From: a virus
Lineage: Duplodnaviria > Caudoviricetes
Reading direction: 5' to 3' (one strand)
IMG/VR virus record: IMGVR_UViG_3300020049_016712
Coordinates: 1-64,000 of that record
DNA length: 64,000 bases
Shown here: piece by piece, positions 1 to 25,810 of the stretch
Layout of the letters: each line of letters opens with the position of its first letter
How positions within the stretch are numbered: the first letter of the stretch is position 1
Position numbers and translations under genes: made by a program
Notes under the pieces: model-generated
What the model saw: the letters and a program-made list of their open reading frames with translations, nothing else
What the model was told of the DNA's origin: nothing
The model's database searches: none

Positions 1-8
1 GGTCTTTG

Positions 9-158
9 TATGTTACGCCTTTCGGAAGGGCTTTGTGGTTCCGGACATGGGCGGAAATTGGATATGCCTTGCCGATGGGCTTGGTGGATCTGACAAAGTA
101 AAGTCTAACGCCTAGGGATGCGCAGATACGCCGTTCGGAGCGGTTTGATGGCTCCGCC
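9..158 (+). CRISPR. Degenerate 3-repeat mini-array (type V-M-like repeats); may continue left of the window
   Basis: Units gttac-GCCT-ttcggaa-GGGC-tttgtggttcc-GGAC (12-46), gatat-GCCT-tgccgat-GGGC-ttggtggatc-TGAC (61-94), gatac-GCCG-ttcggag-CGGT-ttgatggctc-CGCC (125-158). Same architecture as the units at 2030-2192. Confidence 0.6.
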
Positions 159-172
159 ATTGGTTCTTTCTT

Positions 173-201
173 TTGACAAACAGGTAACGCGTTGTTAATA
201 T
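173..201 (+). promoter_or_regulatory. sigma70-type promoter with variant operator (TTGACA-N17-TAATAT)
   Basis: TTGACA 173-178, GGTAAC in the spacer, TAATAT 196-201, followed by a GAGCAAACG leader. Confidence 0.55.
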
Positions 202-254
202 CCAATTATAAACGAGCAAACGGAACGCCCGGATGGGCGAGGAAGGTGAGAAAA

Positions 255-923
255 ATGAACGTTGTGGAACTCAACAAGGAGATCGTCTCGGTTCTGGACA
301 CGGCCAGGACCTCGGGTATGGGCGCGCAGGAGATGCGTTTCCTGGCCTACCTTCTATACCTGAAGGAGGAGGGTCGCGCCGACGAGGCTGGCGCTGCTTT
401 CTTGCGCATGTGGTCATCGCTCGACCCGTGCTTGCCGACCGAGCGGTATAAGTTCATCGCGTTCTGCAGGCGGTTCGACCGTTCCACCCTGCCGCAAAAC
501 GGCGTAGGTCATAGCCTCGCGCAGTTCGCTGATGGCCGCTGCTGTCCGGTAAACGCGCGCCGCTTCGTCGCCACCAATATCCTCCTCGGCCGGCTTTCGT
601 TGGGCCACCTTCCGCAAATCGAAATCCTCGATCAACACGTGTTGATAAGTTTCAGCCACGCGTTTTGCCCAACACCGATACAGGTCTCGGCGCCGCCGCA
701 ACACCTTGTCGCGCAAGTTGGCCTCCCAGTCCCACAAGTGCTTGTCCTGTTTGCGCCAGGCCTCCAAAGCCTCAAAGGCATCCTCGTCGCCCTCAAAACG
801 CTCGGACCGCCAGGCTATAGCAAGAGCGGCCAACTTGCTCTGAGAACGCCACTGCGCCAGATGTTCCGTTTTCTCGGTCAGCCATTCCGGCAAGTAGGAC
901 TGAGATTTCAGCCACGCAGATAA
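255..923 (+). CDS. Hypothetical protein; probably only the first ~70 codons are genuine, the rest is antisense to the Cas12m-like gene
   Basis: ATG 255 behind a promoter and purine-rich RBS; reads into the convergent Cas12m-like ORF from 414 onward. Confidence 0.4.
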   Translation: MNVVELNKEIVSVLDTARTSGMGAQEMRFLAYLLYLKEEGRADEAGAAFLRMWSSLDPCLPTERYKFIAFCRRFDRSTLPQNGVGHSLAQFADGRCCPVNARRFVATNILLGRLSLGHLPQIEILDQHVLISFSHAFCPTPIQVSAPPQHLVAQVGLPVPQVLVLFAPGLQSLKGILVALKTLGPPGYSKSGQLALRTPLRQMFRFLGQPFRQVGLRFQPRR

Positions 924-1976
924 CGTTTTTTGAGCCGCGTTGAACGACTTGCCGCGAATAGATCCGAGGTCGGCCACTTTGCGCAGCCGATCCAGGATGG
1001 CGTCTGGCAGGATTAGATAGTCGACATGGCCGGCCTCGTCGAGCAAAGTAGCCACTCGCAACCCGCCATCCACTACGCGCCAACCCACATCGATGGCACA
1101 TCGACCCCACTTCGCAATGGGAAGCGGTGGTATGTTTTCCTCCACGGTGAATTGCGCAACCCAGTGAAACTTGGATCCGACTCGGCGCCTGAAGACCTTG
1201 ACCCATCGTATCCTTCCGGGCGGGAGCGGTCGATGCATCGGCATGTCAAACCGAGCCCACACCGGAGCCCTACCTTCGCTCCCGATACGCATCCAAAGGG
1301 TCGTTTCCGACAACCATTTCCTTTGACCTTCGGTCAACCCTTTGGCGTACCAGGCAGCCGGGTCCGGCGGGTCAACTCTGACTCGAGTGTCGGCTCGAAA
1401 CAGGTCTGGAGTCTCCATGACTCCCTGCAGTTGCACCGCGATACAGCCAGAACCGTCCCACTGGTGGAAACGCGGAGGAGTCGGCTTCTTCTTGGCTGCC
1501 TGAACGGCGGCCTCGGCATGCAGGTAGGTTCCCCAAAAGGCTTCGGTCGCCGCTCTAGCCGCCTTCACCTCGGCGTTCGCAACCTCGTTGATAGCCTCGA
1601 TGTTGGCCTGAACGCTTTCGTCCTCCCGAAGGCGCCTCTTAGCCTCTCTGATATCGTACCGCAACTTGGAAGCCCGGCCTCGCAACTCCTTCACAGCTTT
1701 GGCTGCGTCGCGCTTATCGCCCTTCGTGCGACTCGCGCTATTGGCCTGGCGGATAGCCTGTCGGCGCTCCTCGATCTCGGCCTCGACTTTGGCCAATTGC
1801 TCCAACAGGTCGCCCTCCCGAGCGATATGCTCGGCCATCAGGGCCGCATAGGCATCGCGGCGGCGGCGTTCGATGGCCACCAACTCGTTGCGGTATCTGT
1901 GTCCGGCAAGAATTTGAGCCACCACCGCTTCTTCGTCTGCCGGGTAAGGCCGACACCCATATTCGTATATTCTCAT
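414..1976 (-). CDS. cas12m: Cas12m-like (type V-M/V-U1) RNA-guided DNA-binding protein, C-terminally truncated (~520 aa)
   Basis: ATG 1976 with GGAGG RBS; YEYG and HRYRNELV start, long coiled coil, FHQWDGSGCIAVQLQ, PMHRPLP, RuvC-I AIDVGWR, RuvC-II LIEDFDL; stops after GGTVE with no CxxC finger. Confidence 0.85.
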   Translation of the reverse strand: MRIYEYGCRPYPADEEAVVAQILAGHRYRNELVAIERRRRDAYAALMAEHIAREGDLLEQLAKVEAEIEERRQAIRQANSASRTKGDKRDAAKAVKELRGRASKLRYDIREAKRRLREDESVQANIEAINEVANAEVKAARAATEAFWGTYLHAEAAVQAAKKKPTPPRFHQWDGSGCIAVQLQGVMETPDLFRADTRVRVDPPDPAAWYAKGLTEGQRKWLSETTLWMRIGSEGRAPVWARFDMPMHRPLPPGRIRWVKVFRRRVGSKFHWVAQFTVEENIPPLPIAKWGRCAIDVGWRVVDGGLRVATLLDEAGHVDYLILPDAILDRLRKVADLGSIRGKSFNAAQKTLSAWLKSQSYLPEWLTEKTEHLAQWRSQSKLAALAIAWRSERFEGDEDAFEALEAWRKQDKHLWDWEANLRDKVLRRRRDLYRCWAKRVAETYQHVLIEDFDLRKVAQRKPAEEDIGGDEAARVYRTAAAISELREAMTYAVLRQGGTVEPPAERDELIPLGRQARVER

Positions 1977-2029
1977 TTTACCTCCAATGTGAATTTCGGC
2001 CGCGCTTCCCCGGATCTTGAACCCGAGTT

Positions 2030-2192
2030 GTCGGGATTGCCAAGCCTTCCCGCCAGGCATATCTCGGTCTCCAACACATCTCTGGTCTTGTCGCATCCAC
2101 AAGGCCTATGCGCAAGGCATCTCCGGTCGCTTTGGTCTTGTCGAGCGAGTATACCGTCGAACAAACGAAGCCGGCCCGAACGGCGTGTCCTA
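2030..2192 (-). CRISPR. Degenerate 3-repeat mini-array directly upstream of the Cas12m-like gene
   Basis: Minus strand: gacac-GCCG-ttcgggc-CGGC-ttcgtttgtt-CGAC (2189-2156), gagat-GCCT-tgcgcat-AGGC-cttgtggatg-CGAC (2123-2090), gatat-GCCT-ggcggga-AGGC-ttggcaatcc-CGAC (2063-2030). Compensatory stem change; spacers ~29 and ~23 nt. Confidence 0.65.
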
Positions 2193-2855
2193 TCCGAAAA
2201 CACGGTCGCGAACGGCCTCCCAGGCCTGCAGATTCGCATACGTGTCCAGGAAGTCGTTGGCCTCGTGGGAACGCTGCAGAGCGCCGCAGATTCCGTTCAG
2301 CGCCGTGAATTTCAGCCCAGGAATTTCCTCCTGGATGTCCTCGACGAACTCCTCGAGCTTGTCTTCGATTTCCGGGTCGAAGGCCGGTCCGAACAGGTCG
2401 GAGGTGACCTGATATTCGACCAGGGGCAACTCGTCGACCTGACCAACCCAGTAAGGACCGTCTTCCGAGTCGACAGCCTCGGCGACCGCGTAGGTGTCGC
2501 CATATACCTCGACGTTGCAGTGAACGTCGGGTGCGCCCGGGTCGCCATTGAGGACCGCTTCGAACTCGCGAGACGGCTGGGCTTCCGACCAGGCGCGCTC
2601 GGAGTTGGTCCAACGGGCCAGCTCGCCGCTCGGGAGGCGGACAATGTGGTCTTCGCAATTGTCCCAAATCACTTCGGCGTCCGAGGGATAATCCCAGGGG
2701 GCCATCGGGCCGCGCGGGCCCCAGTCGCTGGTCTGCTCACTTTCGTCGAGCAGGCCGCTGGCGCAAAGAGCCTCGCTCCACTCTTGGAGGTCTTCCAGCG
2801 TCTTGACTTCTTCCAGGGCTTCTTCGAAATTGGTTTCTTTGGTTTCGCTAGTCAT
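2190..2855 (-). CDS. Highly acidic early protein (possible DNA mimic/anti-defence)
   Basis: ATG 2855 behind a consensus promoter and GGAG leader; strongly D/E-rich. Confidence 0.7.
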   Translation of the reverse strand: MTSETKETNFEEALEEVKTLEDLQEWSEALCASGLLDESEQTSDWGPRGPMAPWDYPSDAEVIWDNCEDHIVRLPSGELARWTNSERAWSEAQPSREFEAVLNGDPGAPDVHCNVEVYGDTYAVAEAVDSEDGPYWVGQVDELPLVEYQVTSDLFGPAFDPEIEDKLEEFVEDIQEEIPGLKFTALNGICGALQRSHEANDFLDTYANLQAWEAVRDRVFG

Positions 2856-2856
2856 C

Positions 2857-2917
2857 TTCGTTTGCTCCGTTTCGTTTGCTACATGCAGAGTATACGACAC
2901 ACGTTAACCATTGTCAA
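2857..2917 (-). promoter_or_regulatory. Early promoter TTGACA-N3-GTTAAC...TATACT plus leader AGCAAACGAAACGGAGCAAACG
   Basis: -35 2917-2912, -10 2894-2889, 17-nt spacing. Confidence 0.8.
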
Positions 2918-3191
2918 GAGGCTCCTGAATGAAGGTTTGGAACTCTTTCTGAAACTGGTCGGCGAGGCCGTCCATGTAATCCTCCTTGGAACGAAGGAAG
3001 TCGTCTAGAGCAAGCAGATACTCGGCCGTTTGCCTGCACTTCTCGGGCGTGAAAGCCGCAGGCGATGACAATGCCTGCTGAACGCGGTTGCGAGCCTCCT
3101 CGAGTCGTCCCTTTGTGGTGCGCATATACCTCTCCGCAAACGACGGCTCAGGCGTCGAGGAACTCGATGTCGGTAAACCCTGCTGGTCCAT
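2904..3191 (-). CDS. Hypothetical helical protein
   Basis: ORF in the same-strand early gene run. Confidence 0.5.
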   Translation of the reverse strand: MDQQGLPTSSSSTPEPSFAERYMRTTKGRLEEARNRVQQALSSPAAFTPEKCRQTAEYLLALDDFLRSKEDYMDGLADQFQKEFQTFIQEPLDNG

Positions 3192-3432
3192 AATGTGTCC
3201 TCACCTTCCATGTGAAATGATCTTTGTCGAAATTGTTGTAAACAGGATGGTAGTCGACGCATTTCAGGCAAAACTTGCAACCTTCAAAAATGACAAACCG
3301 ATTTGTTCGGGAATGGCAGGCGTCGCAGTTCAGGGTAACGCCGTACTTTGTGGTCACTTCAGGCTCAAACCCGAGACCAATCAGAATCTCGGCCCGCTCA
3401 AGTGCCTCTGCTATCTCTGCTCTGGATTTCAT
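3148..3432 (-). CDS. Hypothetical Zn-finger protein
   Basis: CDAC and CLKC pairs. Confidence 0.6.
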   Translation of the reverse strand: MKSRAEIAEALERAEILIGLGFEPEVTTKYGVTLNCDACHSRTNRFVIFEGCKFCLKCVDYHPVYNNFDKDHFTWKVRTHYGPAGFTDIEFLDA

Positions 3433-4340: not shown

Positions 4341-5210
4341 TTAATATCCAACATGGCGAATCTCCAGGCGAGCAGCGGTTGCCGCCGGATTGTTTTCGAC
4401 GCTGGCCATGGCCAACTCGCCCATGGCCCGAATCAGGTAAGGGTGGCTCCTGGTCTTGGCGATTCCGGCCGACCAGTGGGCCCGAATCGTCTCGATAGGG
4501 CACCCAGCATTCAGATTGCCCACGGCAACGGTGCGCTCAGACTCCCACCAGGAACCCCAGGGCAGATCGATTCCAACCGCCGCAGAGGAACCGTTGCGAT
4601 GCTCCCAAACTTTGGTGGCGGCCACGGTGATAGCGTCGCGCACCAGTCGATAGTTTTTCGACCGCGCCCGATTGTGCGGCGATGGATGCCAGGTCGGAAT
4701 GACCCACCCTGGTCCGTGGCTGAAGGTGGCCGGAATCGCCTTGCCGTAATCTCGCGAACCGGAAAATGGATGCGACGTGAAAGCCGCACAGAGCGAAGCC
4801 GACGCGAATCTTCCCAGTCCAATCGCGACAATGGGTTCCATCGTGATCATCTGAGCGTGAAACCAACCTGCGCAGGCGGAAATCTGCTCCTGGGTTGGAT
4901 CAGGGTTACCCTCTCCAGGCCAGCAGTTGACCACGTTGCCTACCGGAACCGATAGCCGGTCCAGATAGTTGGCCTCGAGGCAGGCATCGAGATTTCTCCC
5001 CGATGCACCCTGGAAAGCCTGGCCGGTTTCATCCTCTTTGGCCCCTGGAGCCTCCCCAAAGCAGACGATACCAGACGTAGAAGGCGCGATGCCAGTCCAG
5101 GTCACAGGGGCCGTACATCCGGCCCTAAGCGAGCACATCGAACAGGATAGAATCGCTTCCCTGACGTTTTCGGCCATGACGATTTTGGCCGGGTCGATCT
5201 GAATGGTCAT
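4341..5210 (-). CDS. Uracil-DNA glycosylase family 4 (Fe-S)
   Basis: CSMCSLRAGC cluster, GEAPG..ED..G.AF.G.SG, NVVNCWP, HPS motif. Confidence 0.9.
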   Translation of the reverse strand: MTIQIDPAKIVMAENVREAILSCSMCSLRAGCTAPVTWTGIAPSTSGIVCFGEAPGAKEDETGQAFQGASGRNLDACLEANYLDRLSVPVGNVVNCWPGEGNPDPTQEQISACAGWFHAQMITMEPIVAIGLGRFASASLCAAFTSHPFSGSRDYGKAIPATFSHGPGWVIPTWHPSPHNRARSKNYRLVRDAITVAATKVWEHRNGSSAAVGIDLPWGSWWESERTVAVGNLNAGCPIETIRAHWSAGIAKTRSHPYLIRAMGELAMASVENNPAATAARLEIRHVGY

Positions 5211-10611: not shown

Positions 10612-11381
10612 TACCCGAGACTCGCCTTGAGTTCGTTGTAATGCGCCTCTTTGGTGGCCGCCTGAATTGCAGCAGCATTGGTCCGCACTGACGGCGAATT
10701 GAGACAGGCCGTGCGCCAGGATGCGAAATCAGACGTGGTCGCAACCAGTCCGAGCATTTCGGCAGCCACATCATCGGGCACACCGTTGCCGGCCGGAGCA
10801 GCCGAAGATCCATTCGCAGGAGTCGTCGTTGCGGTCTGAGCGGAGCCCTGAGCGGGAGCCTGCTGTTGATGCGACTTGTCGCCGATCCAGCCGATGAACT
10901 TGGCGGGAGCGGCCATCGTGCGCTTCTCTCCACCCTTGATTTTATACTCTACGGGCTTGAGTTGGACGATGGCCCCGCGCCAAATCTCGGCGTCCCGAGT
11001 GTCGTGACGACCGTTTTTCCGCAACTCGGACATCAGGCCGCACTCTGCCGAGTTTTTGATCCATTTGCCGTACAGCGAACCGCCGGTGGGACCGCGCTTG
11101 TCGTCGTTGGGATCCATGATGATTCGGCCGTTGTGCTGAATCACGAAACCATCGCCCACCGTGAATTTCTCTTTGCGAGGCTGGTCGGTGTGGTAGTCGT
11201 ATCCCTCGGCCATGAACTGGATGACGTTGTGTCCCACAGACTCGGAATAATCGGCGATCCCGAAGTGCGGATTCTCGATCACCAGCGTGTAACTGGAAAA
11301 GTCGTTCTCGGGCGGATTCCACAGAGCCTGTGCCTGCTCTTCCGACACCTGGAACAATGGGGTATAGGTGTTTGCTGCCAT
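10611..11381 (-). CDS. Hypothetical, possible ssDNA-binding/recombination protein
   Basis: Position in the recombination module; A/Q-rich linker. Confidence 0.5.
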   Translation of the reverse strand: MAANTYTPLFQVSEEQAQALWNPPENDFSSYTLVIENPHFGIADYSESVGHNVIQFMAEGYDYHTDQPRKEKFTVGDGFVIQHNGRIIMDPNDDKRGPTGGSLYGKWIKNSAECGLMSELRKNGRHDTRDAEIWRGAIVQLKPVEYKIKGGEKRTMAAPAKFIGWIGDKSHQQQAPAQGSAQTATTTPANGSSAAPAGNGVPDDVAAEMLGLVATTSDFASWRTACLNSPSVRTNAAAIQAATKEAHYNELKASLG

Positions 11382-11636: not shown

Positions 11637-12170
11637 TTAGTTCTGTTTTTCTTGAATCTTTCCTTCCCTGTTTCTGAAGATTTTTCGATTGATTTTTATC
11701 CAATTGCTTGAATCAAATTCTTCTCCGCGCTCGTTTACGATCTCGTGTGATCTCCTGAAATCTCTGTAGTCGCGCCCCAGGATATTGAGCCAGTCGACGA
11801 ATTCAAAAGCGTATTTTTCGGCTTCTTCGTGATGGTCGTGAGCCTCCGTCAAAGTGCAAGCTCGAGTCTGATAATCGCCTTCTGCCTGAAACCTGTCGTA
11901 ATCCCAAAGCCAGCCAACGGTTCCGTCGTCGTCCAAAAAACCTGTTTGTCCGGGCAGAATCATCGTCTCGAAAACCACTGGTGTTCCATTTAGAATGTAG
12001 GAGTGATCGAGTCCTAGAAATACGGTCGAGATTCTGCAGACCCTGAAAACCCCAATCCACAACTCGGTCAGTGCGATGCTTTCGCGTTGAATTTTCCCAA
12101 CGGCTTCGCGGTGCACGAAAATTTTCCTAACGTTGCCGCATTCATCCAGTGCGAAACATTCCATGCTCAT
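11637..12170 (-). CDS. Hypothetical phage protein
   Basis: ISTVFLGLDH...FETMI motif; coupled start. Confidence 0.6.
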   Translation of the reverse strand: MSMECFALDECGNVRKIFVHREAVGKIQRESIALTELWIGVFRVCRISTVFLGLDHSYILNGTPVVFETMILPGQTGFLDDDGTVGWLWDYDRFQAEGDYQTRACTLTEAHDHHEEAEKYAFEFVDWLNILGRDYRDFRRSHEIVNERGEEFDSSNWIKINRKIFRNREGKIQEKQN

Positions 12171-12430
12171 GTCAGCCTCCTGTTGGGCAATATGGTTACC
12201 AGAACAGGTAGTTTACCAGATTCTGATTTCTCCACCACGAAACGCAGGCGCAGCGGACGCGGACCCTGCCAGAGCCACGCCCCCGACTTGAATTGCTTAA
12301 CTTTTTTGGCCTCTTTAGTCAGGTTAATCAGCTCCCCCAGGGCTTGCTCATAGGTCAACCCGCGAGCCCACCGCTCGCGATAGCGACGCACGGCGTGAGG
12401 TGTCACGAATAATGGTCCAGACGCGCTCAA
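12167..12430 (-). CDS. Small basic protein, RelE/BECR-like RNase candidate
   Basis: VTPHAVRRYRER, terminal VLVTIL; coupled to cysH. Confidence 0.5.
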   Translation of the reverse strand: MSASGPLFVTPHAVRRYRERWARGLTYEQALGELINLTKEAKKVKQFKSGAWLWQGPRPLRLRFVVEKSESGKLPVLVTILPNRRLT

Positions 12431-13179
12431 GAGCAGGCCTCCCGAGCCATCATATCAAGTTCGCGTAGGCGGTCCCGATAGTAGAGACCCTCCCACTCGG
12501 CTCGGCCGTGGCCTGTTCCCCGACCGCCGGCCAGGCCAGCCACCCGGAGCCTATCGCGGTCCCAAATCCCCCCCTGAGTGTATCCGTAAGCCGGGTGCAC
12601 GGGGAGGCTAAACTGCAGTAGGTAGGCAAAGACCTGGGCCGTAGACCAGCGGCCCAGAGGCGCCAACGTGTTGCGGGTGGCCAGGCCCTTCCCGACGCGT
12701 TTTCGCCTGGCGTTAGACTCCTCGGCCCGCACCCCGCTGGCATAGCGGGCCCCGAACCTGGTAGCAGCCTCGGAGAATCCGGCAGAGAGGCTGAGTCGGC
12801 CGGCAGGGGCCTGCCAGGTGCCGTCTGGCTGCGGGGCGCAGTGAGTCACCACTTCCTCGTATGGCATCGGGAAATCGGCCAGGAAGGCGTCTCGCACCAG
12901 TCGGCAATCGGGGTTGTCGCGAGGGTGGTTGCGAACCCAGACAAGCGGCGGCCCATTGTCGGCCCATAGCGTCCAACACAGGTGCGCCAGGACGATAGAG
13001 TCTTTCCCCCAGGAGCAGCCGATATAGTCCGGCCGGAACCGCCGCAGTTCCTCGCGAGCCGCGTACTGCAGCCGTTCCCAGTTGGTGGACCTGGCGACGA
13101 CCCGATCACGCCGACGTAGACGCTCCCACTCGGCCAGGTCGGCCTCCGTGTGGCGCTCGGTGACGATTAGCCCGGACAC
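12427..13179 (-). CDS. CysH/PAPS-reductase-like type IV-B ancillary protein
   Basis: GTG 13179 with GAGGA RBS; SWGKDS PP-loop, SGVRAEES..R, PLGRWST..V.AY, HPAY. Confidence 0.85.
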   Translation of the reverse strand: MSGLIVTERHTEADLAEWERLRRRDRVVARSTNWERLQYAAREELRRFRPDYIGCSWGKDSIVLAHLCWTLWADNGPPLVWVRNHPRDNPDCRLVRDAFLADFPMPYEEVVTHCAPQPDGTWQAPAGRLSLSAGFSEAATRFGARYASGVRAEESNARRKRVGKGLATRNTLAPLGRWSTAQVFAYLLQFSLPVHPAYGYTQGGIWDRDRLRVAGLAGGRGTGHGRAEWEGLYYRDRLRELDMMAREACS

Positions 13180-13805
13180 AGTACCAGTTCCTCGGTCGAC
13201 CGGCGCCAATAGGGGTAGGTGAGATTCCCGTAGCGGACATGGCTCTCGGTCACCCCTGGCCAGTCCGGGGGCAGGTGGCGCATTGCTCGACCGTCGGGAC
13301 TGACCACAGGGAATCCAGGCCATGGCTCGACCACCTCGAATTCCCAGCGTCGGATGCGACCGAGTCCGCAGGAACGCTTCCGGCCCAGGTGGTGGATCGC
13401 CGATAGGCGCCTGCGAACCTCGGCCAGATCGGCCAGCAGGAACCACGTTACCCGGTCCCAGGCCGCGTAGCCAACCTGATATGGTATTCGGAAATGCTTC
13501 TGCTTGCCTGCGGCCAGGTTCACGCGCTTCATTCGGCTGTGGTGAACGGCCTGCTCGACCGGGAAGCGGCGAATCAGATACTTCCGCTCGAGTAGCTCCC
13601 ACTCGACCACGGAAGCACTGGCCAGATGAAAACGCCCTCCCGGCTCGCGCTCGACTGGAACCTCGATTGGAACCAATTGGTCTTCAGTCGTAGCCAGCTC
13701 GATACCCTCCTGGACGCAAACCGCGTAGGCCAGCAATGCGTCGATATGGATCATGTCCATGGCCACGGGTCCCTGCAGGTAGGCTGTTGCCCTCAGTGGT
13801 TGCAT
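13167..13805 (-). CDS. csf3: Csf3 (type IV Cas5 group)
   Basis: IDALLA, LG.KRS.G.G.I..W, R.LP, YPYW. Confidence 0.85.
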   Translation of the reverse strand: MQPLRATAYLQGPVAMDMIHIDALLAYAVCVQEGIELATTEDQLVPIEVPVEREPGGRFHLASASVVEWELLERKYLIRRFPVEQAVHHSRMKRVNLAAGKQKHFRIPYQVGYAAWDRVTWFLLADLAEVRRRLSAIHHLGRKRSCGLGRIRRWEFEVVEPWPGFPVVSPDGRAMRHLPPDWPGVTESHVRYGNLTYPYWRRSTEELVLCPG

Positions 13806-14344
13806 AGCGGCTCCACCATCAGCATCCCAAACCCGTAAGGTTTGCCAGGTCCCAGACCGTCAATGAGGCAGCGCGCCAGTTCGGCCGGGTCGGTGCACTC
13901 GAGAATTCCGTGATAGTCCACCCCGGTGAACGTCAGGGGCAGCCCGTCTGGCTTACGGCCAACCGCCTTGGGCGCCATCCGCTTCCAGACCTCGCGAGCC
14001 ACCCATCCGAACTGGTGGCGCAGGAGCCAACCGGTCCAGTCTTTGTCGGGCACTCTCATCCCGTTTTTGCGGCCATCAGGGTGGACCTTCTTGGTGACGT
14101 TGGCGCGCAAGTGAAACAGGTAGCGCCGGCCGGCAGCGAGTTCCACCTCGACGGGTCGCGAATCCGGGCCGACAACCACTGGCGTTCGGACCCTGGCCAC
14201 CGGACCTTCAAGCCGATAGAGAAGCCTGGCCTCGGCCCGCTTCTGGGCTGGCACCAGGGTCTGCACCTGCCGGTGAATCGAGTCGCAGTCGTATCCCCGA
14301 ACCGGGAACAGTGTTTCCTGTAGGGTTAGAGTAAGCGCCCCCAT
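13793..14344 (-). CDS. cas6: Cas6e-like RAMP endoribonuclease (compact, 183 aa)
   Basis: IHRQV, LLYRLE, YLFHLRANVTKK, WLLR, VDYHGIL, G-rich loop GLGPGKPYGFGML. Confidence 0.8.
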   Translation of the reverse strand: MGALTLTLQETLFPVRGYDCDSIHRQVQTLVPAQKRAEARLLYRLEGPVARVRTPVVVGPDSRPVEVELAAGRRYLFHLRANVTKKVHPDGRKNGMRVPDKDWTGWLLRHQFGWVAREVWKRMAPKAVGRKPDGLPLTFTGVDYHGILECTDPAELARCLIDGLGPGKPYGFGMLMVEPLCNH

Positions 14345-15318
14345 CAGGCCACCACCTTGGCCAGAAACTCCCGAATCCGGTCCTTGCGCTCGGCGATATG
14401 GCGCCGAAACAGCTCGCCCTTGCGCTGGTCCGGTCCAACCAGGTCGAGGGTATCCATTCGCTCGCTGAAGTTGGCCAAGCTCACGTTGCGAGCGTCGATC
14501 GGCACCAGGTGGCCATGGCCAGTCCCCCGCTTGCCACCCACGCGGCAATGGCGCAGAAACGCACCCACCATGACCAGGAGTGTATCCTCGTCGAGCGGCG
14601 TGTAGAGAGTCGCTGTCACCGACCAAAAAAACAGGCTCCCTTGGGCCACGCGCTCATAATTAAAGGGCATCATAGTCGATTTGCTTTTGACGGCAGCCAC
14701 CGCGTCCCGTGATTCACCGGCCGTCTCGGAGTTTAACAGGCGCTGCTCGGCCCCAGCCCGCTCTCCGGGTATCAGGAGCAGGCGCTTGGCCGGGTCGAGG
14801 GTCGGGTCCATCCTGACCCGCTGCACAGGCTCGATGTGGGCTCGGCAGCCGTCGAGTTCGCCGGCGCCCTCCCGCGCCCACTCGGGCACCAGGTGCTCGG
14901 TTTCGCGGCAGACCAGAATAGCCGGGTCAACCTGCAGGCGCCCAGGTATAATCCTGTTTTGCGCACAGCCACCCAACAGACCCAGGGGCGGAATCAGTTC
15001 GGCGAGTTGGCGAAACTCGTCGAGGTTGACCGCACTCCCGCTTGAACCGGTGATCATCCCGCCCGCGAACAACAGGCGAAGAGCGTTCTCGGTCAAGCTG
15101 TCTTGCAGCATGTCGGCGCATTCTAGCAGGCAGTAGGTGCTCGCCTCGCGCAGACCGTGGCGCATCGTGTCTCCCGTCACGATAGGGACTTTGGCCCAAC
15201 GGCCGCAGGGTTGGCGAACCTTCTGGGTCATGATGATGCTGGTGTTGCCCAGATTTTCCTGAGCATGAGCGATTGGTGTTTCGGCTCTGAGCAAAAATTC
15301 AAACCGTTGCTGTTTCAT
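14344..15318 (-). CDS. csf2: Csf2 (type IV Cas7 backbone)
   Basis: TPIAH, VPIVTGDTMRHGLR, LFAGG, LLGGC, GRLQV, GGKRGTGHG. Confidence 0.9.
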   Translation of the reverse strand: MKQQRFEFLLRAETPIAHAQENLGNTSIIMTQKVRQPCGRWAKVPIVTGDTMRHGLREASTYCLLECADMLQDSLTENALRLLFAGGMITGSSGSAVNLDEFRQLAELIPPLGLLGGCAQNRIIPGRLQVDPAILVCRETEHLVPEWAREGAGELDGCRAHIEPVQRVRMDPTLDPAKRLLLIPGERAGAEQRLLNSETAGESRDAVAAVKSKSTMMPFNYERVAQGSLFFWSVTATLYTPLDEDTLLVMVGAFLRHCRVGGKRGTGHGHLVPIDARNVSLANFSERMDTLDLVGPDQRKGELFRRHIAERKDRIREFLAKVVA

Positions 15319-15721
15319 GCGATCCTCCAAGACCTTCTTCCAATGCTTCTGATTCGGTTAACTCCTGTTTTCGTTCTTTTGATTCCTGGGCCCGGAGTCG
15401 GCCCATGGCAATCAGGTAACTGTGTTCGTTCTCGACCAGGTCGAGCCATTCGTCGGGGGTGCAGACGTGGCCAACGGTCTCGGCCAGTTTGCTAATCACC
15501 AAAGAGCGTGAGTTGCTCGGGGCTGCCAAACCCAGCGACCGGCTCAGCGTCGTGACCCACTCGGCCACGCTGGTGCTCGTTCGGGCGGCCACCCGAATTC
15601 GGTCCTGGAGTTGGTCCCAGTGTTTGAGCGGATTGGCTCCGCTTGCCAGATACTCGCGTCGGACCTCCATGATCAGGTCCACTGTCCGGCCCTCTATCTC
15701 CTCTTTCTGATCGTTGCGCAT
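15299..15721 (-). CDS. cas11: Cas11-like small subunit
   Basis: ATG 15721 with AAAGGAGG RBS; all-helical; canonical position between csf1 and csf2. Confidence 0.75.
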   Translation of the reverse strand: MRNDQKEEIEGRTVDLIMEVRREYLASGANPLKHWDQLQDRIRVAARTSTSVAEWVTTLSRSLGLAAPSNSRSLVISKLAETVGHVCTPDEWLDLVENEHSYLIAMGRLRAQESKERKQELTESEALEEGLGGSHETATV

Positions 15722-16454
15722 CGCGCCTCCTTTCAAGTTCCACTTCGTCTCGTTGGGCTAGCCAGAGGCACAGGGCGAACCACCCACCTCCGCGCTCGCG
15801 AGCCCAGTAATGTTCGAACAGGCGAGCCCAGCGAGCAGTCTCCCCTGTCATGTAGGTCCTGGGCGAATAATCGCCGGTCTCTATCTCCGACTTGGTCACT
15901 CCCCCGCTGAGTCCGTCCACCATCGCGTCGAGCAACTCCCACGACCCCATTTCCACGTCGAGTTCCTCGAATCGCACCTGGCCCCATTGTCCGGGATTGA
16001 GGCGCGCGTAAGGAATGACGTGTTTTTGACCACTGTCGGCAATAGCGGCAAACCAGGGGGGAGTTTTCGGGCCACGCAGCCACTCCAGGATAGCTGGTTT
16101 GTCCCCTTTGTTGGCGGTGACGTATCCACGGCGGTCCCAGAGGTGCGAGTAAAGGCGCAGGTTTACCCCCCGTTTTCCTGGAGGCGGATCGGGGTGAAAT
16201 CCGGGAACAATCGTCCAGGAGTGAGCCCAGACGCAGGCCTCGCAGACGTGCTGTGATGCCGTGCACGAGACTTTGTTCTGGTCGGTGAAGCTCGAGCCTT
16301 GCCACTTGTCGAACAGCATACCTCTGGGCGCCACGCAAGCGCACATCCGACATAGTGAGTCCTCCAAAGGAGAACATCCAGCCTGAACTGGTGAGCCCGC
16401 CAGTTGGTGCAAAATCGCCGCCGGACTAACCGGTTTGGAAAAAGTTTCAATCAT
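15492..16454 (-). CDS. csf1: Csf1 (type IV Cas8-like) with overprinted C-terminal tail
   Basis: CRMC, SSFTD, CEAC, NK..K, IADSGQKH, LWLAQ; ends QLTLFGD. Confidence 0.85.
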   Translation of the reverse strand: MIETFSKPVSPAAILHQLAGSPVQAGCSPLEDSLCRMCACVAPRGMLFDKWQGSSFTDQNKVSCTASQHVCEACVWAHSWTIVPGFHPDPPPGKRGVNLRLYSHLWDRRGYVTANKGDKPAILEWLRGPKTPPWFAAIADSGQKHVIPYARLNPGQWGQVRFEELDVEMGSWELLDAMVDGLSGGVTKSEIETGDYSPRTYMTGETARWARLFEHYWARERGGGWFALCLWLAQRDEVELERRRDAQRSERGDRGPDSGPDHGGPTRVSGKRSQSAQTLGPTPGPNSGGRPNEHQRGRVGHDAEPVAGFGSPEQLTLFGD

Positions 16455-24699: not shown

Positions 24700-25810
24700 T
24701 GAGGCTCACCTCCTTCGCTGCTTTGATGATCGGCGAGAACCGCTGAATTTCTTTGGTCTTGATGGGCAAATGCGGGTGTTGCGCGAAGGCCCCAGCCAGG
24801 TTCTGCGCAACGGCCGCACTGGTATCGAGCGCACCCTTCTCGGCGGCCATCGTCAAAATGGTCCAGGCCGCAGACCATCTCTCGGGAGTGAGATTGCTCA
24901 GAGCCGCCTGCACGACCGAGGTCAGCACAACATAACGGTGGTCGCCGCGCTCGGGCAGCTTGAATTTGCTCGGGTCGTTCAGGAGGTCTTCCGGGTTCGG
25001 CAAGTCAAGCTCCTTAACCCAGGTGCGGAACTCGAGACCAGGCCCGGCTCCAACGGAGCCTTCAGCCAATTCCAGGAGCGCCTTTTCCCGCTCCGCTTTG
25101 GGCAGGCTGCAGGACTTTCCGGCGGCCCACAACTTGCTGAGCATCTCCCAGGAACGCGGCGACGGCCAGGCTTTCCCGGCTTCGTCGGCGCTATCGGGCA
25201 CCTTGATCTGAAGCCCAGGTCGCGTCCGCACGAAACCGGCTACGAGAATGCGGGCCTCCGTCAAACCATCCCTCCAGCTCGGAGAGAGTTTGGCAGCGCG
25301 AGCAGTCGGCCAGTGTCCAGACTCCATCCCGTTAGCCCATGCCTCCAACTCGGGTTCGCAGGTCAGGTGCAGGAACCGATTAGCCAACGGGGGAGAAAGC
25401 TCCCAGCCTCCAGCCGCTTGGTCAGGCGGATTGGCGGCTGCGATAATCCGCAACGACTCAGGCAACTCGAGGTCGCCAACAACGCGGTCAAACACCACCC
25501 TGAGCAGTGCTGCTTGCACCGCCGGCGGCGCGGTCGAAATCTCGTCGAGGAACAGGAGCGGAGCCGAAGACTCGGCCAACGATTTGGCCCACTGCGGCGG
25601 TGCGAACGATACGCTATTGTTGTCTCCGACAACCGGCAGGCCGGAGAAATCCGATGGTTCGCGAATGCTCGCGATTACGGTCTCCAGTTTCATCGAGAAA
25701 TCGATGGCCAGCTGTTTAATGGCCGAGGTCTTCCCGATGCCTGGCTCCCCCCAGAGGATGACCGGAACTCCCGCCTGAACAGCGATGCTAAGGGCGTTGA
25801 TACACTTCAT
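24689..25810 (-). CDS. MoxR-type AAA+ ATPase
   Basis: GEPGIGKT, LFLDE, AANPP, PLANRF, SPRSW. Confidence 0.9.
   Translation of the reverse strand: MKCINALSIAVQAGVPVILWGEPGIGKTSAIKQLAIDFSMKLETVIASIREPSDFSGLPVVGDNNSVSFAPPQWAKSLAESSAPLLFLDEISTAPPAVQAALLRVVFDRVVGDLELPESLRIIAAANPPDQAAGGWELSPPLANRFLHLTCEPELEAWANGMESGHWPTARAAKLSPSWRDGLTEARILVAGFVRTRPGLQIKVPDSADEAGKAWPSPRSWEMLSKLWAAGKSCSLPKAEREKALLELAEGSVGAGPGLEFRTWVKELDLPNPEDLLNDPSKFKLPERGDHRYVVLTSVVQAALSNLTPERWSAAWTILTMAAEKGALDTSAAVAQNLAGAFAQHPHLPIKTKEIQRFSPIIKAAKEVSLSGR

Follow-up and report, generated by a model that had tools for sequence, protein, structure and literature searches.

A type V-M (Cas12m) locus with structure-keeping, sequence-diverged repeats on a tailed phage, rearranged and probably crippled

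We analyzed a 64,000-nucleotide (nt) stretch of viral DNA (hereafter, the window). It forms the start of an IMG/VR virus contig of 86,005 bp (IMGVR_UViG_3300020049_016712) classed as linear and ~89% complete. Close to its start, a minus-strand open reading frame (ORF) encodes a Cas12m protein, preceded by three strongly diverged units of a clustered regularly interspaced short palindromic repeats (CRISPR) array. The contig carries genes for a tape measure protein, a head protease/major head protein, a large terminase and a portal, and therefore belongs to a tailed phage. We consider it probable (about 60%) that this tailed phage carries a true type V-M locus, rearranged and probably crippled. 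The locus adds to the known V-M kind, in a worn state, and is not a new kind of system.

The initial annotation, a reading of the sequence without database searches, had proposed a Cas12m-like effector at this position, and comparison with known structures confirmed that identity. The best PDB match of the window protein was 23vw_A, a solved Cas12m chain (E = 1e-72), followed by Cas12m2 (8hio/8hhl, 3e-23), GoCas12m (8pm4, 1.5e-20) and UnCas12m4a (2.5e-15). Given these strong matches, and with no TnpB chain at E ≤ 0.01 among the PDB matches, the protein therefore does not cluster with transposon TnpB. In addition, an AlphaFold model built with 47 homologs had a predicted local distance difference test score (pLDDT) of 92, and Foldseek returned a template modeling (TM) score of 0.74 to both Cas12m2 (8hhl) and GoCas12m versus 0.37 to TnpB. 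The coiled-coil roof of the REC domain, predicted as helices across residues 12-162 (pLDDT >89 except for one 10-residue block), aligns to the REC domain of Cas12m2. The RuvC-I and RuvC-II residues D296 and E450 are present, and H248/R249 align with H269/R270 of Cas12m2—a WED-domain pair that is (nearly) invariant in the 47 homologs and that, in Cas12m2, contacts and reads C(-1), the last repeat base of the CRISPR RNA (crRNA) (PMC10442227). Up to residue 500, the ORF at 414-1976 encodes a Cas12m of the D-E-D kind. A large protein collection contained 253 relatives of ~540-700 residues, most of them with the Cas12f1-like TNB Zn-ribbon family PF07282. The closest of these (P0002, 560 residues, from a Vulcanimicrobiota metagenome-assembled genome, MAG) is full length with a Zn ribbon, shares 62% identity over residues 1-500 and matches 23vw_A from end to end (4e-82). 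Single-protein scans of IMG/VR gave no relatives of the Cas12m protein, nor of the small gene described below.

Homology to Cas12m stops at residue 500, corresponding to window base 477, and the last 60 residues are lost. The missing part comprises RuvC strand β5, the Zn-ribbon (TNB) domain and the RuvC-III aspartate; a search for a complete RuvC with its three active-site positions (D-E-D, H-D-D or N-D-D) plus a TNB found neither CxxC pairs nor a DxNA motif in the window protein. In their place, the ORF runs on for 21 codons that are the antisense of a small plus-strand phage gene. The tail peptide (VEPPAERDELIPLGRQARVER) can also be read from a second copy of this small gene (locus L002), and it is modeled with low confidence (pLDDT 45-65). 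Bases 277-479 recur in inverted orientation, with 92% identity, at the opposite contig end (G000:C1:85803-86005), where the second copy terminates normally with RRFDVIGC. The first copy has lost its stop codon at the junction, and its frame continues antisense through cas12m to position 923. The break in homology at base 477, together with the antisense small-gene tail, therefore indicates that a rearrangement fused cas12m and the small gene tail to tail at window bases 477-479. The motif NAMNLY was considered as a RuvC-III remnant and rejected, given the homology of bases 277-479 to the small-gene copy. No second cas12m occurs in the contig, where the only cas12m match stops at base 477, and the truncated form is a singleton in the protein collection. 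The assembly probably broke in the inverted duplication at the contig ends; what remains of the array may be located in the ~11% of the genome that is absent.

The three units upstream of cas12m (R1-R3), which had been noticed in the sequence with cores at 2184-2156, 2118-2090 and 2058-2030 on the minus strand, were recovered at these positions, and are contained in the 213 nt that separate cas12m from the stop codon of the gene upstream. Each follows the pattern GCCK-N7-MGGC-N10-CGAC, to which the full repeat adds an 8-nt 5' part; only two other matches to this pattern exist in the 64-kb window outside the cas12m flanks. Three further units (L1-L3) were located as inverted repeats at the contig start. 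Pairwise identity among the six is 54-73%, so that the description of the array as highly degenerate was fair, and five of them end in AC (L3 ends in CC). No array of near-identical ~36-nt repeats was found in the 86-kb contig, which holds these six diverged units only; since the contig begins within the left-hand units, the ~11% of the genome that is missing may include a canonical array. Spacer 1 contains CTCGCTCGAC, the end of a lost repeat, and after it AAGACCA, duplicated from the start of spacer 2; the array has therefore passed through duplication and deletion. The coordinates of these and the other features are collected in Table 1.

Table 1. Features of the cas12m region in the window and the locus of the sister phage
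Feature	Position	Strand	Remarks
L1	9-46	plus	diverged unit, inverted relative to R1-R3; L1-L3 touch the contig start
L2	58-94	plus	as L1
L3	122-158	plus	as L1
Small-gene promoter-like site	173-201	plus	TTGACA-17-TAATAT with TG
Small phage gene, copy 1	255-479	plus	92% identical to copy at other contig end
Read-through tail of ORF	414-476	minus	21 codons encoding VEPPAERDELIPLGRQARVER, then stop; antisense of small plus-strand gene, not Cas12m
cas12m-delta ORF	414-1976	minus	520 residues; ATG 1976-1974, GGAGG 1985-1981
Cas12m-homologous part	477-1976	minus	residues 1-500: WED, REC with coiled-coil roof, RuvC up to start of strand β5
Sequence after R3	2029-1977	minus	would supply a third guide; runs into cas12m ribosome-binding site
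R3	2066-2030	minus	helix CGGGA/UCCCG; E 9e-5, best match in contig
Spacer 2	2089-2067	minus	23 nt
R2	2126-2090	minus	helix CGCAU/AUGCG; E 0.018
Spacer 1	2155-2127	minus	29 nt; repeat-end remnant CTCGCTCGAC plus duplicated start of spacer 2
R1	2192-2156	minus	helix CGGGC/GUUCG with two G-U pairs; ends AC; overlaps stop codon of upstream gene; E 0.14
Acidic-protein gene	2190-2855	minus	221 residues, strongly acidic, no family match; directly upstream of R1-R3
Sigma-70-like promoter	2917-2889	minus	TTGACA-17-TATACT, 11/12 match; precedes acidic-protein gene
Sister phage locus (L003/L004)			Vulcanimicrobiota MAG contigs JBINOK010000702.1, JBFXAX010000033.1

What the units preserve is a structure. 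They align in register with repeats from two other cas12m loci, that of a sister phage (L004, described below) and that of a marine element with a 7-repeat array of this family (L009), except that in the window units an additional base separates GCC from the helix. The repeat of Cas12m2 crRNA is 36 nt long, with C(-22..-17) paired to G(-8..-3) and then A(-2) and C(-1) (PMC10442227), and the window repeats match this layout: a helix of the form CGNNN/NNNCG ends at -3 and is followed by A(-2) and C(-1). This helix covaries, with 5/6 pairs changed on both sides. The initial annotation was right that units with a GCC/GGC stem are Cas12m repeats and that the fourth stem pair changes between T-A (R2 and R3) and G-C (R1), but the covarying helix is CGNNN/NNNCG, in what had been read as loop and linker, whereas the GCC/GGC stem is essentially invariant and crosses that helix; GCC/GGC fits, and may form, the second helix of the published pseudoknot. 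In every one of the six window units, the additional base pairs with the nucleotide directly 5' of GGC, and the T-A/G-C change is therefore real. In the two-helix structure, 96% of the cells were paired versus 83% for shuffled and 17-48% for slid alignments, and a repetition on 26 repeats with no window sequence had an equal outcome (96-98% in both sets versus 83-85% and 17-66%). Single-sequence folding gave z-scores mostly near 0, and thermodynamics alone therefore cannot pick the structure; covariation does. Moreover, a covariance model built solely from repeats of L004, L009 and two further loci (L016 and L017), with no window sequence, returned the six window units as its six best matches in the 86 kb (E from 9e-5 to 0.14, with noise from 0.18). 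Judged by alignment and covariation, the window units are diverged Cas12m repeats that keep the predicted crRNA scaffold.

The sister phage shows what a less worn form of the locus looks like. Its locus L004 contains, in order, a type IV-B cassette, an acidic protein, a gene of ~160 codons, six to seven diverged units, a full-length cas12m, an array and a degenerate tail. The array consists of seven identical 36-nt repeats with unique spacers of 38-39 nt, followed by five diverged, co-oriented tail units, which brings the degenerate units of this repeat family in L004 to 11-12. The window phage shares with it the order of IV-B cassette, acidic protein, degenerate units and cas12m, at identities of 62% for Cas12m, 65% for the acidic protein and mostly 75-97% for the IV-B proteins; the sister phage differs in its 560-residue Cas12m, the extra ~160-residue protein, the canonical array and the degenerate tail. 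Within L004:5836-5975, several of the short "spacers" of the upstream units appear by eye to be small hairpins (GTCGC/GCGAC, ACGTC/GACGT, GCGTCC/GGACGC).

A search of the spacers against other genomes, which had been proposed as a check on the guides, produced no target, whether in this phage, its sister, reference phages, plasmids or IMG/VR. A comparison of the six guides with the 86-kb contig, in which 5 mismatches in 18 nt were tolerated, gave no match with fewer than 4 mismatches and no seed flanked by a protospacer-adjacent motif (PAM); one 11-nt seed at 25347, with a CTCC flank and 12/18 identity, is about what chance would give. The spacers after R1 and R2 had no match in IMG/VR as exact 20-mers, and the 216-nt cassette gave chance matches alone against reference phages and plasmids (best E 0.6, others ~8). 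No guide seed of at least 8 nt has a match in 1-3400, and there is none with a YTN PAM, so the region has no guide of the CreR kind. The L004 spacers matched neither the window phage nor the other loci; the two phages have unrelated guides, none of them conserved.

We propose the following course for the locus. No promoter-like or terminator-like site was found between the acidic-protein gene, R1-R3 and cas12m, and the units therefore probably lie in the leader of the cas12m messenger RNA (mRNA), as in L004. Transcription from the promoter at 2917-2889 probably covers the acidic-protein gene first, R1-R3 (within that leader) next and cas12m last, so that all three would be co-transcribed. In an intact ancestor like the sister phage, Cas12m would bind each scaffold, with the next ~17-20 nt as the guide, and would sit on DNA beside a YTN PAM, blocking transcription without cutting; it may also bind and cut its own leader as feedback on its synthesis. 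The truncation most likely abolished or badly weakened this activity in the window phage, which would leave the cassette as a recent relic. This would not hold if another Cas12m, supplied by the host, by a co-infecting element or from the 11% of the genome that is missing, used the units in trans. Several points speak against activity: the singleton form with its accidental tail, the missing ~160-residue protein, the lack of a canonical array, the deletion scars and the lack of targets.

The alternative that fares best, although we hold it to be unlikely, follows the initial annotation in seeing a domesticated, working CRISPR interference (CRISPRi) cassette: the truncated Cas12m would still bind DNA, fixed guides would silence genes of the host or of rival elements, and repeat divergence would guard the guides from recombination. 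Several observations argue for it and weigh against a crippled effector. The 500 codons are intact, with a good Shine-Dalgarno sequence and start codon and a strong upstream promoter; the fold is confident to residue 500 and the residues contacting the RNA scaffold are conserved. The repeats keep their pairing by compensatory changes, which is not expected of neutral decay, and degenerate upstream units also occur in the sister phage with its intact system. The spacers (23-29 nt) are longer than the ~17-nt guide used by Cas12m. Moreover, there is a natural, well-supported clade of 11 Cas12m proteins (P0031, P0033, P0051, P0052, P0057, P0059, P0077, P0078, P0081, P0098 and P0111; 536-591 residues) that lack the Zn-ribbon cysteines and RuvC-III, two of which were examined and adjoin arrays that have 21 and 13 repeats belonging to the repeat family of the window (L016:4001-7260 and L017:4001-6800), and TnpB-derived TldR repressors bind DNA despite C-terminal truncations (PMC10705468). 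On the strength of the intact ORF, the paired repeats, the natural clade and the TldR precedent, the truncated protein could therefore still be active. Also to be set against our interpretation, the junction lies 479 bp from a contig end and might be an artefact of the assembly. However, the natural Zn-ribbon-less clade keeps strand β5, which the window protein has lost; the truncation occurs in a single sequence, which ends in an accidental antisense tail; the array bears deletion scars; and no guide has a target or is shared between the sister phages. A fixed guide cassette is thus possible, with a crippled remnant at least as likely, and a crippled remnant or a Cas12m supplied in trans is somewhat more likely than an active fixed-guide cassette.

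A further reading, to which we assign a still lower likelihood, makes the units cis-acting elements: docking and cutting sites for Cas12m in the leader of its own mRNA, with feedback on expression, rather than sources of guides for outside targets. Their placement suits such a role, as both R1-R3 and the six to seven L004 units sit between the upstream gene and the cas12m start, with no promoter or terminator in between and the last unit 45-53 nt before the start codon. Cas12m is also known to cut pre-crRNA at a site inside the repeat and at another ~17-18 nt into the guide, and repeat-like sequences are found upstream of cas12a in about half of V-A loci (PMC10120712). Yet the promoter region has no PAM-flanked match to any guide, not even a partial one, the cas12m loci L007, L008 and L010 have no upstream units, and the window phage would need an active protein. 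It is likewise a rather unlikely proposal, joining parts of both alternatives, that leader repeats whose stems were diversified by compensatory change are recombination-proof permanent guides or feedback sites, and that a Cas12m lacking Zn ribbon and RuvC-III, a loss seen in this phage and independently in the natural clade, is still an RNA-guided repressor.

We find it doubtful that the units serve a Cas12m encoded elsewhere, either by forming a phage mini-array or by acting as anti-CRISPR decoy RNAs that sequester a host Cas12m. The phage's own effector is truncated while the unit scaffolds are intact, solitary repeats exist in L009 (one with its own promoter-like site), and there are precedents for mini-arrays on phages and for RNAs that mimic repeats (PMC11656645, PMC10651486), but neither a host Cas12m nor a host array carrying this repeat was identified. 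The repeat pattern had no match in IMG/VR and three single matches, in unrelated phyla and none in Vulcanimicrobiota, in 185,579 species genomes. Just as doubtful is an assembly artefact, by which the first 479 bp would be mis-joined and the real phage would have a full-length cas12m and a normal array. The proximity of the junction to the contig start and the 92% identical inverted copy at the other end fit this idea, as does the tendency of arrays and inverted repeats to break assemblies, with several relatives' contigs ending right at the array. Against it, cas12m and the small gene showed no common sequence at the joint that could mislead a graph assembler, and the two small-gene copies differ at 8% of positions and are therefore not a fold-back of one sequence. 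Finally, a transposon TnpB with its guide RNA, or phage iterons or terminators beside an unrelated protein, can be dismissed: Pfam and NCBIfam give weak TnpB-type matches (E 0.03-0.09) and PHROGs weakly labels the protein a "transposase", but full-length Cas12m matches are at least 50 orders of magnitude better than any TnpB match, relatives adjoin CRISPR arrays, the 3' flank is a duplicated phage gene and not a transposon end, the units match the Cas12m repeat model, and the PDB, Foldseek and repeat-model results refute such an identity.

The rearranged and probably crippled locus can be placed among described systems. With type V-M (MmCas12m2, 8hhl/8hio; GoCas12m, 8pm4; 23vw; PMC10442227, PMC11013384), it shares the fold through WED, REC and most of RuvC, a ~36-nt repeat with a pseudoknot helix to -3, A(-2) and C(-1), the His-Arg pair, the lack of cas1/cas2 and the expectation of no trans-activating crRNA. 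It differs in a protein that stops at residue 500, without β5, Zn ribbon or third RuvC residue; in six units 54-73% alike, three per side and inverted, instead of identical repeats; in the extra base between GCC and the helix; and in its location on a phage of an uncultured phylum. Profile searches of the 86-kb contig gave no match for cas1 or cas2 (Cas4 was not searched for), in line with the initial annotation, which took the lack of adaptation genes for a sign of domestication; such genes are typically absent from V-U1/V-M loci (PMC11013384), and their absence points to nothing of the kind. V-M systems are known on plasmids and some prophages (PMC11656645). Like the MvCas12m of a myxophage (bioRxiv 10.64898/2026.09.14.751636) and a prophage V-M (PMC11656645), the window system is viral, has an array next to cas12m and lacks adaptation genes; MvCas12m, in contrast, is a full-length D-E-D protein with a consensus-repeat array of eight spacers. 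TldR (PMC10705468) is likewise a phage-borne member of the TnpB/Cas12 group without the C-terminal ZnF and RuvC part and retains RNA-guided DNA binding, but it has one long omega-RNA-type guide at the 3' end of its gene and a clade-wide truncation, as opposed to the CRISPR repeat and singleton truncation found here. SRUs upstream of cas12a and CreR/crlRNA (PMC10120712) resemble R1-R3 as degenerate repeats just upstream of an effector gene and outside a main array. Their known guides partly match the cas promoter, whereas none does so here. We know of no description of such SRU/CreR-like upstream repeat elements for V-M.

The two phages together have the consequence that CRISPR finders miss sequence-diverged, structure-conserving Cas12m repeats, and the most useful by-products of the analysis are the repeat model that finds diverged units and the Zn-ribbon-less Cas12m clade with large arrays. 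If the truncated protein works, it would be a smaller, minimal Cas12m of ~500 residues with no Zn ribbon, and phages would hard-wire CRISPR interference with non-identical repeats; if it is inactive, the locus is a snapshot of the decay of a phage-borne CRISPR module. No published description of the Zn-ribbon-less form was found in the literature examined, and P0117 lost the Zn ribbon and RuvC-III separately from the 11-member clade.

Other cas12m loci offered further observations. The ~160-residue protein, with the motif QCLAVVDAVERFW, is encoded directly upstream of cas12m, often overlapping its start, in L004 (5038-5529), L007 (3528-4004), L008 (2255-2752) and L010 (4534-5004); this conserved gene is absent from the window phage. 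In L009, solitary Cas12m repeats occur at 2452-2487 and 10676-10711, far from the array and with stems that differ by compensatory changes; one stands behind a TTGACA/TTAAAAT promoter-like site of its own, and the other immediately precedes a gene's ribosome-binding site.

A type IV-B cassette that includes a Cas6e-family gene lies upstream of cas12m on the same strand (window 12170-15899), separated from the cas12m module by ~9 kb of other genes; IV-B cassettes are likewise found upstream of cas12m, on the same strand, at L004:1-3772 (with a Cas6e-family gene) and L010:1-3420. Class 1 crRNAs carry an 8-nt handle. The Cas6e of the cassette was considered as the user of the window units and rejected, since their hairpin ends 2 nt before the repeat end and leaves no 8-nt handle, and since this repeat family also stands beside cas12m in loci without IV-B (L009, L016 and L017). 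The acidic protein, which is kept upstream of cas12m in the sister phage, might be an anti-defence DNA mimic, although this is a guess only. Elsewhere in the window, positions 4341-5210 encode a protein of the uracil-DNA glycosylase superfamily (Pfam UDG, E 2e-22).

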